The notes under the pieces: generated by a model
What the model saw: the letters and a program-made list of their open reading frames with translations, nothing else
What the model was told of the DNA's origin: nothing
Databases searched by the model: none
Shown here: piece after piece, positions 34,786-39,489 of the stretch
How positions within the stretch are numbered: the stretch's first letter is position 1
How the letters are laid out: each line of letters opens with the position of its first letter
Assembly: GCA_965223665.1 (NCBI GenBank)
Contig: OZ245011.1
Location: forward strand, 2,336,001-2,400,000
Direction of reading: 5' to 3'
DNA from: Nitrospinaceae bacterium
GTDB taxonomy: Bacteria; Nitrospinota; Nitrospinia; Nitrospinales; Nitrospinaceae
Length of the DNA stretch: 64,000 nt
Position numbers and translations under genes: made by a program

Positions 34786-36366
34786 ATGTTCAATTTAGTT
34801 GAGAATTGCTGGATACCAGTAAAAATGAAGGACGGATCAAATGAACTTATAAGACCATTTGATGTTACAAAAAATCTATCATCGAATCCCATAGTATCGT
34901 TATATGCCTGTCGTCCCGATTTTAATGGCGGGCTAATTCAGTTTCTAGTTGGGTTGGTACAAACTTCAATGACACCTAAAAACTCAGAGGAATGGAACAA
35001 TTATTTCCATAACCCACCCTCTACTTCTTTATTAAAGTTCAATTTCTCAAAATTAAAATACGCTTTTAATTTGGATGGGGAATTTCCCCGATTTATGCAG
35101 GAGGGAAACTTAGAAAACAACTCCAGAAAAACTATCAATTTTTTATTAATTGATTCTCCCGGAGAAAACACGATAAACAAAAACACAGATCTTTTTGTAA
35201 AGCGCAATCAATATTTAATGCAGTGCTATCCTTGTACAGCAACAGCATTATTTTGCTTAAATACATTTGCCCCTTCAGGTGGTTCAGGACATAGAACATC
35301 CATTCGGGGAGGAGGGCCGCTAACAACTGTAATTTTTGATCCAGAAAGCCTATGGAAAACAATTTGGTTAAACATTATTCCAGAAGATAAATGGCCAAAA
35401 ACTAATTGGAAATTAGATTCCCATTTAGATGCCCATATTTTCCCTTGGTTAAAATTTAAAAAAACCTTATTACAACCGGAAGAGATTCACCCCTTGCAAA
35501 TGTATTGGGGTCTTCCAAGAAGAATTCTATTAGATTTTCAGCTTGAATCCTATGGAACATGCCAACTGTGTGGCACTCAAAATCAAAAATTGGTCAAACA
35601 TTTTTTTACTGCAAAACATGGTTACCATTATAAAAACTTTCCTTTGCCTCATGTACTTAGTCCCTATATTAAAAAATCAAATAAAGAAATTTTTCCAAAG
35701 AAAAGCCCCGTTAATGATAATTCTTACAGACAATGGTTAGGACTAATTTTTAAAGACACAAAGTTAAATGTTAATCCCGCTTTTGCTGTCACAACATTTC
35801 TTCATGAAAAACCTCGATTTCCTTCTATCCGGCTTTGGTCTTTCGGATTTGTAATGAATAATATGAAACCGCTTAATTGGAAGGATTGGGAAATTCCATT
35901 ACTAATTCCATCAAAGGAATACATAGCAACATTCAAAAGTTTCATTAGTCAACTAATTCTAGCAGCTGACCATATCGCTACAATTATTTTTTCAAAATTA
36001 AACCATTCCTGGAAGTTAGACTCTAGCCAACCTAATCAGGAAATTGATAACCAAATCAAATATTTCTGGTATTCAACTGAATTCTACTTTTATAAGTTAT
36101 TGAACAAAGCCCTAATCCTGCTCCCCGATGATTCCAATCTAAATTTCTTAAAATTAGATTGGTTAAAAGCTATAAATCAAACTACAGAAAAATTATTCCA
36201 AATTCATTTTTCCAAAAGCCTTTTTAGAAAAAAAGATTTACGCAAAGAGTCTATCATTTGGAAAAACTTGATGTGGTATGCATCCGAGAAAAATCCAAAA
36301 CTAAGAAAGATTCTTTTATTACCGGATAATATTGAAAAAAATTATACCTTAAATTTTTTACGATGA
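34786..36366 (+). CDS. cas8e: Type I-E Cascade large subunit Cas8e (Cse1/CasA)
   Basis: MFNLVENCWIPV, RPDFNGGLIQFLVGLVQT, CYPC...APSGGSGHRTSIRGGGPLTT, YWGLPRRILL, CQLCG. Confidence 0.93.
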   Translation: MFNLVENCWIPVKMKDGSNELIRPFDVTKNLSSNPIVSLYACRPDFNGGLIQFLVGLVQTSMTPKNSEEWNNYFHNPPSTSLLKFNFSKLKYAFNLDGEFPRFMQEGNLENNSRKTINFLLIDSPGENTINKNTDLFVKRNQYLMQCYPCTATALFCLNTFAPSGGSGHRTSIRGGGPLTTVIFDPESLWKTIWLNIIPEDKWPKTNWKLDSHLDAHIFPWLKFKKTLLQPEEIHPLQMYWGLPRRILLDFQLESYGTCQLCGTQNQKLVKHFFTAKHGYHYKNFPLPHVLSPYIKKSNKEIFPKKSPVNDNSYRQWLGLIFKDTKLNVNPAFAVTTFLHEKPRFPSIRLWSFGFVMNNMKPLNWKDWEIPLLIPSKEYIATFKSFISQLILAADHIATIIFSKLNHSWKLDSSQPNQEIDNQIKYFWYSTEFYFYKLLNKALILLPDDSNLNFLKLDWLKAINQTTEKLFQIHFSKSLFRKKDLRKESIIWKNLMWYASEKNPKLRKILLLPDNIEKNYTLNFLR

Positions 36367-36878
36367 ATTCATCAATTCTAATTTTTAAAAAAAATAATAC
36401 TGAGGGACAAATTTTATTTACATGGTGGAATTTACTGCAAAACAATCATTTACAACTAACAGAGTTAATTCACTGCAAAACTTTAAATCAAGTTTTTTTG
36501 TGTCAAGGATTCTGGACTCTATATAAACAAGTGTATAAGAAGGAACCTAATATTTGCGAGGAAAGGCTTGCATTAATTGCTGGATTATTGCCCAAAATAA
36601 CAAATCATATAACAGGGATATCCATCCCTCAACGAATGGCTGCAGTTGTTCCTGGGCGTTGGAATTATCCATTAGTTAGTTATTCCAGGTTTATGCGTTT
36701 ATTAATGATAAATTCGAAGGAAGACTTATATAAATCTTTTTCAGAAAACTTAAGACTAATCCGTTATTCAGCAGACATTTTATCATTATCCAATGATCTT
36801 TATAATTGGGGAGAATCCGTTAAAAAGTTATACGCCATGGAATACTTTTTTAAGTCTCCCGAGACATATATTGAATAA
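36363..36878 (+). CDS. cse2: Type I-E small subunit Cas11 (Cse2/CasB)
   Basis: WW..L.....L..C, RLALIAGLL, VS..RF.RL, L..W......A.EY; ATGA overlap with cas8e. Confidence 0.85.
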   Translation: MNSSILIFKKNNTEGQILFTWWNLLQNNHLQLTELIHCKTLNQVFLCQGFWTLYKQVYKKEPNICEERLALIAGLLPKITNHITGISIPQRMAAVVPGRWNYPLVSYSRFMRLLMINSKEDLYKSFSENLRLIRYSADILSLSNDLYNWGESVKKLYAMEYFFKSPETYIE

Positions 36879-36897
36879 GGATTAAACCAAAAATAAA

Positions 36898-37962
36898 ATG
36901 ACCCGTTTCCTGCAAATACATTTATTAACAGCTTACCCCCCTTCGAACCTGAATCGTGATGATCTAGGAAGACCCAAAACAGCGATTGTTGGAGGAACAA
37001 ATCGTCTTCGTATTTCTTCACAAAGTTTAAAAAGGGCATGGCGAACTTCAAATTTTTTCAAAGAATCCTTGTCAAAACATATAGGAATTCGGACTCGTTC
37101 AATGGGAAAAATAATTTTTCAAAAATTTTTAGATAGAGGTGTTTCAGCCACTCAAGCAAAAAAATGGACGGTTCAAATTTTGGGTACTTTTGGAAAAGTC
37201 AAAAAGGGGAAAGAAAATAGGTTTAATGAAGAACTGGAGATGGAACAATTGGTTCATTTTAGCCACGAAGAAGAAAAATCTATTAATACATTAATAAAAA
37301 CTTTAACGGAACAAAATAGAAGTCCAAACAAAGAAGAATTATTTTTATTAAGGAAAGAGAATAGTTCCATAGACATTGCTTTATTTGGAAGGATGCTTGC
37401 TGAAAACCCTTATTACAATTTCGAAGCAGCTGCACAGGTTGCACATGCATTCACCATTCAAAAAATTGCTCTTGAAGATGACTTTTTTACCGCTGTGGAT
37501 GATCTAAATATAGGTTCATCTTCCGCCGGCCATATCGGAAACAAAGAGTTTAGTTCGGGAATATTTTATTTATATATTTGCATCGATAAAGAACTGTTAC
37601 TCAAAAATTTAAATAACAATACAAAACTAGCTGTACAAGCTACGAATGCGTTAACTATGTCCGCTTCAAAAGTTTGTCCTGGGGGTCATCAAAATAGTTT
37701 TGGCCATTACGGATATGCCATGTTCTTGATGTCAGAAATTGGTAATTACCAGCCCCGTTCATTGGCCGCTGCATTTTTCGATCCAATCAAAGAAAATTAC
37801 CATCACCCTATGATTCAACAGGGAATTGATAAATTGTTCGATGTTCGTGAAAAAATAGACAACATATATGAGAAATGCGCCGAAGATTTTTATTTTTTTG
37901 ATGTGATGGCCAACAAAGGTAGTTTAAAAGAAACTTTAAACTTTCAGGAACAAACATTTTGA
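36898..37962 (+). CDS. cas7: Type I-E backbone Cas7 (Cse4/CasC)
   Basis: FLQIHLLTAYPPSNLNRDDLGRPKTA, RISSQSLKRAWR, DIALFGRMLA, DDFFTAVDDL. Confidence 0.97.
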   Translation: MTRFLQIHLLTAYPPSNLNRDDLGRPKTAIVGGTNRLRISSQSLKRAWRTSNFFKESLSKHIGIRTRSMGKIIFQKFLDRGVSATQAKKWTVQILGTFGKVKKGKENRFNEELEMEQLVHFSHEEEKSINTLIKTLTEQNRSPNKEELFLLRKENSSIDIALFGRMLAENPYYNFEAAAQVAHAFTIQKIALEDDFFTAVDDLNIGSSSAGHIGNKEFSSGIFYLYICIDKELLLKNLNNNTKLAVQATNALTMSASKVCPGGHQNSFGHYGYAMFLMSEIGNYQPRSLAAAFFDPIKENYHHPMIQQGIDKLFDVREKIDNIYEKCAEDFYFFDVMANKGSLKETLNFQEQTF

Positions 37963-38723: not shown

Positions 38724-38730
38724 GCGTCCT

Positions 38731-39399
38731 ATGTATATAAGCCAAATTCGTTTACATTCTAAAGTTGCTGATTCGAGACTACCAAAAGTGGTAATTGAAA
38801 ATAATTTATACGGTTTGCATCAATTGATCTGGAGTTTATTTAGAAGCGAAAAAAGAAACTTTCTATTTCGCATGGATCGTAAAACAGAATATATATCCTT
38901 CATTGTTGTTTCTAAAGTTCCTCCAAAAAATTCCAACAATTTATGGGAAATTCAAACCAAACCCTATCATCCCAAAATTTATCAGCATCAAACTTTAACT
39001 TTCAAACTTCGAGCCAACCCCATCAAAACCAAGAAAAACTTCGATAAAAAACAAAAAAGACACGATGTCGTTATGGAAAAGAAAAAAGAATTAAAAAATA
39101 AAAATGAGGAATTAAAGAAACCGTTCCTTTACAACCAATTAATCCAAAGCACTGGGTATCAATGGCTACAGGAACGAATGGGAAACCATGGGTTTAATGT
39201 AAAATTCGAAGAAGTGCGAATTGATGGTTATCTGCAGCACAGGTTTCAAAAGAAAAATCATTCCATCAAAATTAGTACACTAGAATACACTGGACAATTA
39301 ACTGTTCTAGACCCGGTTAAGCTTTCAAATAGTCTTTTTCAAGGTATCGGTCCTGCAAAAGGATTTGGTTGTGGATTGCTATTGGTAAAGAATCCATAA
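38731..39399 (+). CDS. cas6e: Type I-E crRNA endonuclease Cas6e (Cse3/CasE)
   Basis: MYISQI, YGLHQLIWSLF (catalytic His retained), FKLRANP, G-loop GIGPAKGFGCGLL. Start moved to the ATG at 38731. Confidence 0.96.
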   Translation: MYISQIRLHSKVADSRLPKVVIENNLYGLHQLIWSLFRSEKRNFLFRMDRKTEYISFIVVSKVPPKNSNNLWEIQTKPYHPKIYQHQTLTFKLRANPIKTKKNFDKKQKRHDVVMEKKKELKNKNEELKKPFLYNQLIQSTGYQWLQERMGNHGFNVKFEEVRIDGYLQHRFQKKNHSIKISTLEYTGQLTVLDPVKLSNSLFQGIGPAKGFGCGLLLVKNP

Positions 39400-39401
39400 G
39401 A

Positions 39402-39489
39402 ACGTTCCCCATTTTATGGGGATGAACCGGTTGATGTCAGAAAAAGGCAGTTTATTCTTAATTGTTCCCCACTTTGTGGGGAGATTTTT
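39402..39489 (+). CRISPR. Single-spacer type I-E mini-array
   Basis: Repeat 1 ACGTTCCCCATTTTATGGGGATGAACCG (39402-39429); 32-nt spacer GTTGATGTCAGAAAAAGGCAGTTTATTCTTAA (39430-39461); degenerate repeat 2 TTGTTCCCCACTTTGTGGGGAGATTTTT (39462-39489). Confidence 0.9.

Follow-up and report, generated by a model that had tools for sequence, protein, structure and literature searches.

A free-standing type I-E Cascade operon with one conserved guide in Nitrospinaceae, a candidate RNA-guided repressor

In a stretch of 64,000 nt from the genome of a Nitrospinaceae bacterium (contig OZ245011.1, positions 2,336,001 to 2,400,000; hereafter the window) we found the complete set of genes for Cascade, the effector complex of type I-E CRISPR systems, followed directly by a mini-array with a single spacer. 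Our analysis indicates that this is probably a free-standing Cascade that lost cas3, cas1, cas2 and the ordinary array before the two species of its genus split, and that was kept as a non-cutting DNA-binding complex whose one hard-wired guide binds and represses. This reading builds on the gene content of the locus, the absence of nuclease and adaptation genes, synteny, purifying selection, the conservation of both guide and target, and the uniqueness of the match between them. Repression of its own operon is the predicted target effect with the best support. The first-pass annotation of this DNA had proposed a domesticated Cascade that uses a fixed guide for gene regulation or another non-cutting role, and at the level of sequence this proposal is supported: the complex has no cognate partners, it is conserved, and it has a candidate target flanked by a protospacer adjacent motif (PAM). 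Positions below are those of the window unless prefixed by G000 C1, where G000 is the source genome; G001 is the sister species, the sole other species of the genus, and G031 is a member of the same order with a canonical I-E system.

The five Cascade genes (34786-39399, plus strand) are uninterrupted and closely spaced open reading frames (ORFs), each with a family match. These are cas8e, also called cse1 or casA (34786-36366, 526 aa, PF09481, E 1.4e-76), cse2/cas11 (36363-36878, 171 aa, TIGR02548, 35.7 bits with a cut-off of 28.5), cas7e (36898-37962, 354 aa, TIGR01869, 299 bits), cas5e (37959-38723, 254 aa, TIGR01868, 155 bits) and cas6e (38689-39399, 236 aa, TIGR01907, 147 bits). All five scored above the cut-off of the NCBIfam equivalogs for the type I-E effector module and four of the five above that of Pfam, by which Cse2 is weak (20.3 bits, cut-off 24.6). 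The first-pass annotation had described the genes as full-length and tightly packed, with two overlapping junctions, and this agrees with the intact ORFs and with the two 4-nt overlaps that we located, ATGA at 36363-36366 (cas8e/cse2) and TTGA at 37959-37962 (cas7e/cas5e). The overlap between cas5e and cas6e hinges on a TTG start of the cas6e ORF. The true start is probably about 14 codons downstream, because the Pfam match begins at residue 15 and the ORF in G001 is of 222 aa. The key motifs that the annotation had regarded as intact could be aligned with the E. coli proteins: His44 of Cas6e with His20 of CasE, which we take to be the catalytic residue, the Cas6e G-loop GIGPAKGFGCGLL with GIGPAKSMGCGLL of CasE, and the N-terminal half of Cas8e, its two CxxC pairs and glycine-rich stretch included, with CasA. 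By Pfam and NCBIfam there is no HNH fusion in Cas5e or Cas8e, as had also been noted; both proteins have canonical lengths and match a single family each, which in Cas5e covers residues 4-239.

The partners that would make this module an immune system were searched for in the whole G000 assembly (4.35 Mb in 6 contigs, 98.6% complete). As I-E queries we used Cas3, Cas1 and Cas2 of G031, the nearest canonical locus (cas3-cas8e-cse2-cas7-cas5-cas6-cas1-cas2-array). A tblastn search of G000 with the canonical G031 set returned the five Cascade genes and a weak match to a type I-C cas1, and no I-E cas3, cas1 or cas2. The I-E Cas2 family PF09707 had 0 matches in G000, and neither a second copy of the I-E repeat nor an ordinary I-E array was found elsewhere in this genome. 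The sole matches to Cas3_HD and cas3_core above cut-off in G000 come from the cas3 of a type I-C locus about 310 kb from Cascade (G000 C1:2681400-2691999; locus L007, 9448-20000), and the sole cas1, cas1c, belongs to the same locus. The I-C locus includes at least 41 repeats of a different sequence. Its cas8c is split in three frames, cas7c in two, and cas4 is split as well; cas3, cas5c, cas1 and cas2 are whole, the intact Cas3 having 744 aa with HD and helicase matches. Judging from these frames the locus looks like a decaying effector beside a large array, or possibly an assembly error. The absence of cas3 upstream of the Cascade operon and of cas1 and cas2 downstream of it, which the first-pass annotation had read from the window, therefore holds at the locus and, for the I-E types, in the whole genome. 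The same is true of other arrays with the repeat of the mini-array, which the annotation had suggested looking for. What G000 encodes is not a complete I-E immune system, as it is without an I-E Cas3, without cas1e and cas2e and without a multi-spacer array.

The locus has the same gene order in G001: a gene for an outer-membrane protein (OMP), the five cas genes, repeat, spacer and repeat, a small gene (orf76), the tRNA gene and csrA-fliW. There were 0 matches to Cas3_HD in G001 and no match to cas3_core above cut-off, and its sole cas1 adjoins cas9, in a Cas9-cas1-cas2 locus with 36-nt repeats. As both species are without cas3, cas1 and cas2 at the locus, the loss of these genes predates the species split. 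Furthermore, since G001 keeps its Cascade without any cas3, a Cas3 acting in trans cannot be a conserved requirement. Between G000 and G001 the ratio of non-synonymous to synonymous substitution rates (dN/dS, by Nei-Gojobori) is 0.18 for cas8e, 0.16 for cse2, 0.056 for cas7e, 0.18 for cas5e and 0.22 for cas6e, at dS of 0.56-1.22. For the flanking genes the ratio ranges from about 0 to 0.15, and the values of the cas genes overlap the upper end of this span; the operon is under purifying selection. Synteny and dN/dS in relatives were the check that the first-pass annotation had asked for, and it had named neutral decay as an outcome that would speak against a regulator; what we found is a syntenic operon of five intact ORFs, with dN/dS of 0.06-0.22, and a guide whose seed half is conserved.

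Beyond the genus, Cas8e was found in 4 of 61 genomes of the order, G000 counted, and Cas7e in 7 of 120 genomes of the phylum. In a database of 5.8 billion proteins this Cas8e lineage comprised G000 and G001 only (about 71-72% identical), the next best of the 120 matches listed being at most 40% identical. Among the five genomes with Cas7e outside the genus, cas1-cas2 are present in four, and in the fifth the contig stops at cas6; three have arrays. At two other I-E loci of the phylum, L067 (G007) and L068 (G035), cas1-cas2 and arrays are present and no cas3 was found within 8-9 kb upstream. The G007 locus has no separate cse2 ORF between cas8e and cas7, and in its Cas5, of 391 aa, the C-terminus is extended by about 160 aa that have no Pfam match; the two loci may be I-E2-like. 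In the canonical G031 locus, cas8e (L013, 4638-6201) is divided between an ORF of 441 aa and another of 101 aa, a split that suggests a frameshift.

The mini-array begins two nucleotides past the cas6e stop (39399). It consists of repeat 1 (R1, 39401-39429), a 32-nt spacer, the fixed guide (39430-39461), and a degenerate repeat 2 (R2, 39462-39490), all on the plus strand, and is the one-spacer array that had been noticed downstream of cas6e. R1 (GTTCCCC-N7-GGGGATGAACCG, with the 3′ part ..GTTCCCCATTTTATGGGGATGAACCG) is a genuine I-E repeat: it has the hairpin and an intact 8-nt 5′ handle, ATGAACCG, which is that of the canonical G031 array, and it is followed by a spacer of 32 nt, as an I-E repeat should be. 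In R2 the hairpin is kept, with a compensatory change of the stem from CCCCAT/ATGGGG in R1 to CCCCAC/GTGGGG, and the handle ATGAACCG is replaced by a T-run. Both hairpins fold, and R2 was scored as terminator-like by our scan, so that it may double as a terminator-like site. There is no separate leader at the mini-array, and therefore the guide would derive from the 3′ end of the operon transcript. Comparison of the two species showed that positions 1-16 of the guide are identical (16/16) and that positions 17-32 match at 10 of 16, with six differences. R1 is the same at 27 of its 29 positions; the hairpin stems of R1 and R2 are kept and the loops differ. The intergenic DNA flanking the locus is much less alike between G000 and G001 than the guide and the repeats. 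On the minus strand R1 is itself terminator-like (39406-39422), and transcripts reading through from orf76 would run antisense to the guide. Of the promoter-like matches in this region the highest-scoring one, CTGACA-18-TAAAAT (10/12; 39411-39440, minus strand), lies within the spacer and R1 and points antisense into cas6e.

A candidate target of the guide lies upstream of the operon itself, in the gap of 425 bp (34361-34785) between cas8e and the CarO-like OMP gene on the minus strand, a distance that the first-pass annotation had given correctly. A scan for PAM-proximal matches reported this site, site 1, at 34503-34537 on the minus strand, about 250 bp upstream of cas8e, with the PAM AAG at 34537-34535, the protospacer at 34534-34503 and the paired stretch at 34534-34519. 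AAG is followed there by GTTGAGGTTAGAAACA, which pairs with guide positions 1-5, 7-8, 10-14 and 16. The orthologous site in G001 is AAG GTTGAAGTTAGAAACA, and position 6 is the sole interspecies difference in the paired stretch; according to one report, every sixth position makes no pairing contribution in type I complexes (PMC10120712). Complementarity at site 1 extends over positions 1-16, the same part of the guide that is conserved. An exact match (0 mismatches) to the pattern AAGGTTGANGTNAGNAA occurs once in G000 and once in G001, and in each case it is site 1. As a control for chance we used composition-preserving shuffles of the guide, of which 19 out of 200,000 reached 12/14 with AAG in the 425-bp region; when any PAM was allowed, 191 of 20,000 did. 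We did not find the site 1 block at any of 10 loci from relatives that have no Cascade. Our first seed scan, which required at least 13/14, gave only matches at the level of the controls, and site 1, with 12/14, was below its threshold.

Site 1 is overlapped by a promoter-like element that reads to cas8e (34492-34519, plus strand; TTTTCA-16-CATTAT, 8/12), and the transcription start predicted for this element would fall within the paired stretch. The aligned element of G001, TTGTCA-17-TAAAAT, obtained 10/12 in the promoter scan. A second putative promoter, TTGCAA-17-TGgTATACA (34677-34705, plus strand), is kept in both species. A second AAG, followed by GTTGAT, is found at 34720-34752 on the plus strand; the seed match is of 6 nt only and lies over the promoter-like TTGATA-17-TAAATT, in a block that G001 has conserved. 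This block and site 1 both have CCTAAGGTTGA, inverted and about 180 bp apart, and by its sequence the block may be a further, weak operator or a repeat to which a protein binds. Other matches of the guide were considered and rejected. No self-target of near-full identity was found, since even the best matches of the 32-nt spacer in the genome have 9-10 mismatches, and a 13-nt match in cas7e (37726-37738, PAM GTT) was ascribed to chance, having a mismatch at position 1 and the wrong PAM, with seed matches as numerous as expected. No convincing match to the guide was found in phages, plasmids or IMG/VR, where the best phage match had an E-value of at least 0.9 and the pattern occurred in 0 viral contigs.

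We suggest that the elements described above would work together as follows. The operon transcript would continue through R1, the spacer and R2. Cas6e would cleave it at the base of the R1 hairpin, leaving the 5′ handle AUGAACCG, and the R2 hairpin and its T-run would serve as the 3′ hairpin of the CRISPR RNA (crRNA) and as the transcript end. The single crRNA would then be loaded into Cascade, which, pairing via its first 16 nt only, would bind AAG-flanked sites and block transcription. Binding at site 1, over the promoter-like element, would make the operon self-repressing, as reported for the CreR and crRNA-like RNA (crlRNA) guides of complete I-E systems. A second possible site is the -35 box of a gene for an XRE-family regulator.

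This second site emerged from a genome-wide scan of G000, in which 10 non-self sites had a perfect seed and at least 12/14, two of the 10 with AAG. The AAG-flanked sites with at least 12/14 are three, all intergenic, and of the 23 sites scoring 11/14 six are intergenic; by a crude ORF mask, 13.9% of the AAG-flanked positions in the genome are non-coding. Among 2,000 shuffled guides, 0.6% gave at least three intergenic sites and 3.4% at least two. Site 2 (G000 C1:2857703, minus strand, AAG), 487 kb from Cascade, pairs with guide positions 1-5, 7-10 and 14-16. It is seed-perfect and overlaps the -35 of TTGACT-17-TAAAGT, upstream of the gene for a 139-aa HTH_19/XRE regulator that is 100% identical in G001 and that 39 of the 41 relatives searched possess. 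In genus g2 the promoter can be recognised, and the eight PAM and seed bases are confined to the Cascade-bearing genus. Upstream of the XRE gene, the intergenic region of 650 bp (G000 C1:2857183-2857833; locus L050, 983-1634) is 87-91% identical to that of G001, far above other intergenic DNA. Rfam had no match in the loci of site 2 and of site 3, which lies upstream of a gene for 3-deoxy-D-arabino-heptulosonate 7-phosphate (DAHP) synthase. A more far-reaching interpretation, which we put forward tentatively and hold to be possible rather than likely, is that of a natural CRISPR-derived RNA-guided transcription factor: a vertically inherited, stripped I-E Cascade whose single guide represses its own operon and a core XRE gene, the promoter of the host having gained PAM and seed only in the Cascade-bearing genus.

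Several points count against regulation by this guide, at either site. Expression, processing, complex formation, binding, repression and the benefit of retention are steps that we infer. The AAG PAM and the seed rules were taken from E. coli and Salmonella, and the promoters are consensus matches, of which the G000 element at site 1, with 8/12, is under the threshold of the scan. Within site 1, positions 9 and 15 are mismatched. The two carrier genomes represent one lineage, so that conservation is a single evolutionary observation, and no compensatory change of guide and target is visible. As to site 2, its conservation can be explained by the promoter that it overlaps, in a region that is 87-91% identical anyway. 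Shuffles that preserve composition leave uncontrolled the likeness of the seed GTTGA to a -35 box, and we designed the genome-wide shuffle test when the sites were already known. Site 3, whose geometry is opposite and whose seed is mismatched at position 4, with one extra mismatch in G001, was set aside as probably a chance match. Finally, self-repression alone gives selection no reason to retain the operon. It might be retained because it controls a host gene (e.g., that of the XRE regulator), because of an addiction of the CreTA type whose toxin we did not see, or as a sensor.

The second of these options can be extended to an explanation of the whole locus as a relic of CreTA-type addiction, in which the guide silences a toxin gene and the loss of Cascade kills the cell, so that the five genes persist after immunity is lost. 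This would account for long purifying selection on the Cascade genes only, with cas3, cas1 and cas2 gone. According to the literature, CreA guides addict cells to Cascade, and one guide in Haloarcula represses both creT and cas8 at divergent promoters (PMC8501985, PMC9458426). However, a comparison of ORFs disclosed no conserved small (toxin) ORF near site 1, where the small ORFs of the 425-bp region differ between G000 and G001 (an RNA toxin without an ORF may still exist there), the DNA between site 1 and the OMP promoter is poorly conserved, and relatives of orf76 occur away from Cascade genes, and we regard this explanation as rather unlikely. We give still less credence to a defensive role, in which the guide would block an unsampled mobile element by binding alone and its match upstream of cas8e would be coincidental. 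Type IV-A systems are said to suppress mobile elements via transcription inhibition, and the operon is in a variable region next to a tRNA gene, with a low guanine plus cytosine (G+C) content (0.33 versus 0.39). Yet a defensive spacer with a drifting distal half is unlikely to hold its seed half identical over dS of about 0.9, there was no phage, plasmid-like or IMG/VR match, and the self-match is improbable by chance, as the 19 of 200,000 shuffles indicate.

That the system is still active in interference, with a nuclease supplied in trans by the I-C Cas3 or by an unrecognised nuclease, seems very improbable to us in spite of the intact 744-aa I-C cas3 in G000. G001 has the same Cascade and no cas3, the I-C effector genes of G000 are frameshifted, and adaptation genes are lacking beside one old, conserved spacer with no phage or plasmid match. 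Moreover, the best match of the guide is its own upstream region, which cutting would destroy. Slightly less probable still is a non-functional remnant heading to decay, although nuclease, adaptation genes and ordinary array are all gone: the five ORFs are intact in two species, with dN/dS of 0.06-0.22 at near-saturated dS, the hairpins and the seed half of the guide are conserved, and decay in the same assembly is exemplified by the I-C locus, with its split genes.

We compared the locus with known systems. In CreR of the S. enterica I-E system, R1 keeps the 5′ handle and R2 the 3′ hairpin, and 15 nt of the spacer recur at a site flanked by AAG that lies about 140 bp upstream of casA, whose promoter is repressed through Cascade (bioRxiv 10.1101/2023.03.10.532045). 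Regulatory mini-arrays or crlRNAs with cas8-promoter targets were reported in about 19% of I-E loci (Shmakov et al., PMC10120712). The locus described here has in common with them a two-repeat mini-array with the handle in the first repeat and only the hairpin in the second, partial PAM-proximal complementarity (15 nt in CreR, 16 positions here), an AAG-flanked and seed-matched site upstream of cas8e, computational in our case, and a tolerated mismatch at position 6. By analogy, the guide appears to be of the known CreR/crlRNA design and not a new invention. It differs in its setting. The CreR guide belongs to a complete system, in which it is encoded between cas3 and cas8e and has ordinary crRNAs as competitors, whereas the guide here follows cas6e at the 3′ end of the operon and is the sole one, and with no cas3, cas1, cas2 or ordinary array there is nothing to balance or to shield from self-cutting. 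CreTA is similar in that partial pairing of a degenerate mini-CRISPR directs Cascade to repress a promoter, and in that the Cascade genes, not cas3, thereby become hard to lose (PMC8501985, PMC9458426), and it differs from our locus in its toxin gene, none having been found here by ORF comparison around site 1.

The first-pass annotation had stated that the known Cas3-less type I systems use an HNH fusion or Tn7/TniQ partners. Such systems do exist, but the list was incomplete, as it left out a derived I-E module of Streptomyces with a STAND NTPase, which is described as having cas5, cas6, cas7 and cas8 and no cas3, adaptation module or array (PMC8730458). The operon in the window resembles that module in having I-E-derived Cascade genes without cas3 and adaptation genes, and departs from it in the presence of cas11 and of a conserved one-spacer array and in the lack of a STAND NTPase neighbour. 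The HNH-Cascades of types I-E2 and I-F4 and the CRISPR-associated transposons are also type I effectors that typically are without Cas3, but they have a replacement activity, HNH on Cas5 or Cas8 or Tns/TniQ partners (PMC12669027, PMC10910872); here Cas5e and Cas8e are single-family proteins and the 5.6-kb island around the operon adds only orf76. Repression by binding without cutting, predicted for our operon, was obtained by engineered Cascade silencing in cas3-deleted E. coli (PMC4288158), a laboratory construct, in contrast to the I-E operon here, which is chromosomal and inherited vertically and has one fixed guide. Type IV-A systems are likewise described as repressing transcription by binding, which the Cascade studied here would share, and differ in being plasmid-borne, with arrays and DinG. 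Our literature search retrieved no account of an I-E Cascade that stands alone with nothing but a regulatory guide; such loci might be listed in supplementary mini-array tables that were outside the search (Shmakov et al.; Liu et al., Fig. S6/S7).

So far, the regulatory guides that resemble crRNAs are known from functional CRISPR immune systems, to which they are accessory, and the Cas3-less type I modules have a substitute activity. If the operon is indeed a non-cutting repressor kept after immunity was lost, it would be the end point of a different path, along which the immune parts are gone and a binding complex and its regulatory guide persist under selection. It would then be the natural counterpart of laboratory Cascade silencing and a worked example of an immune effector's change into a regulator of the cell or into a selfish cassette for addiction. 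It would also give grounds to re-read the 'incomplete' Cascade loci that annotation pipelines dismiss, and would provide a compact, naturally cut-free I-E Cascade acting via 16-nt pairing.

The operon and mini-array are encoded within an island of 5.6 kb, from about 34470 to the tRNA-Phe(GAA) gene (40049-40121, minus strand) at its right-hand limit, with a G+C content of 0.33 compared with 0.39 in the flanks. We regard the island as genus-specific because relatives carry unrelated genes at this place: between the OMP gene and the tRNA gene, G002 and G004 have genes of the Sel1, CheW, sulfatase and TPR families. The OMP gene belongs to the family backbone, being present in 16 of 20 family genomes besides G000, and its proximal promoter is alignable with that of genus g2. 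No integrase and no flanking direct repeat longer than 10 nt resembling an attachment (att) site was found in the island. The ORFs between the backbone genes, all accounted for, include no tnsA, tnsB, tnsC or tniQ, a result that stems from these ORFs and not from a profile search of the Tns families across the whole window. As regards Tn7 genes, integrases and helicases, which the first-pass annotation had described as lacking from the window, our analysis covered the island and its flanks. The neighbours of Cascade are the OMP gene, orf76, tRNA-Phe, csrA and fliW, with no adjacent STAND NTPase.

orf76 (39492-39722, minus strand) is convergent on the mini-array and encodes a small two-repeat protein, in which the motif A..I..DR.GA.YY.D..LA.YL occurs twice. 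Among 41 genomes it is found only in the two Cascade-bearing ones; it has 2 close homologues, and a profile search led to 57 distant representatives and to no named family. As a candidate partner of Cascade it was dropped, since five of five metagenome loci with orf76 were without Cascade genes, four of them being only about 1 kb long. Elsewhere in the genome, at G000 C1 ~1.40-1.71 Mb, we observed a dispersed hairpin element of about 32 nt, GT(G/A)TTCCCCCTTTATGAAGGGGGCTAGGGGGA, in at least 12 copies on both strands, which resembles repetitive extragenic palindromic (REP) elements and is not the I-E repeat.

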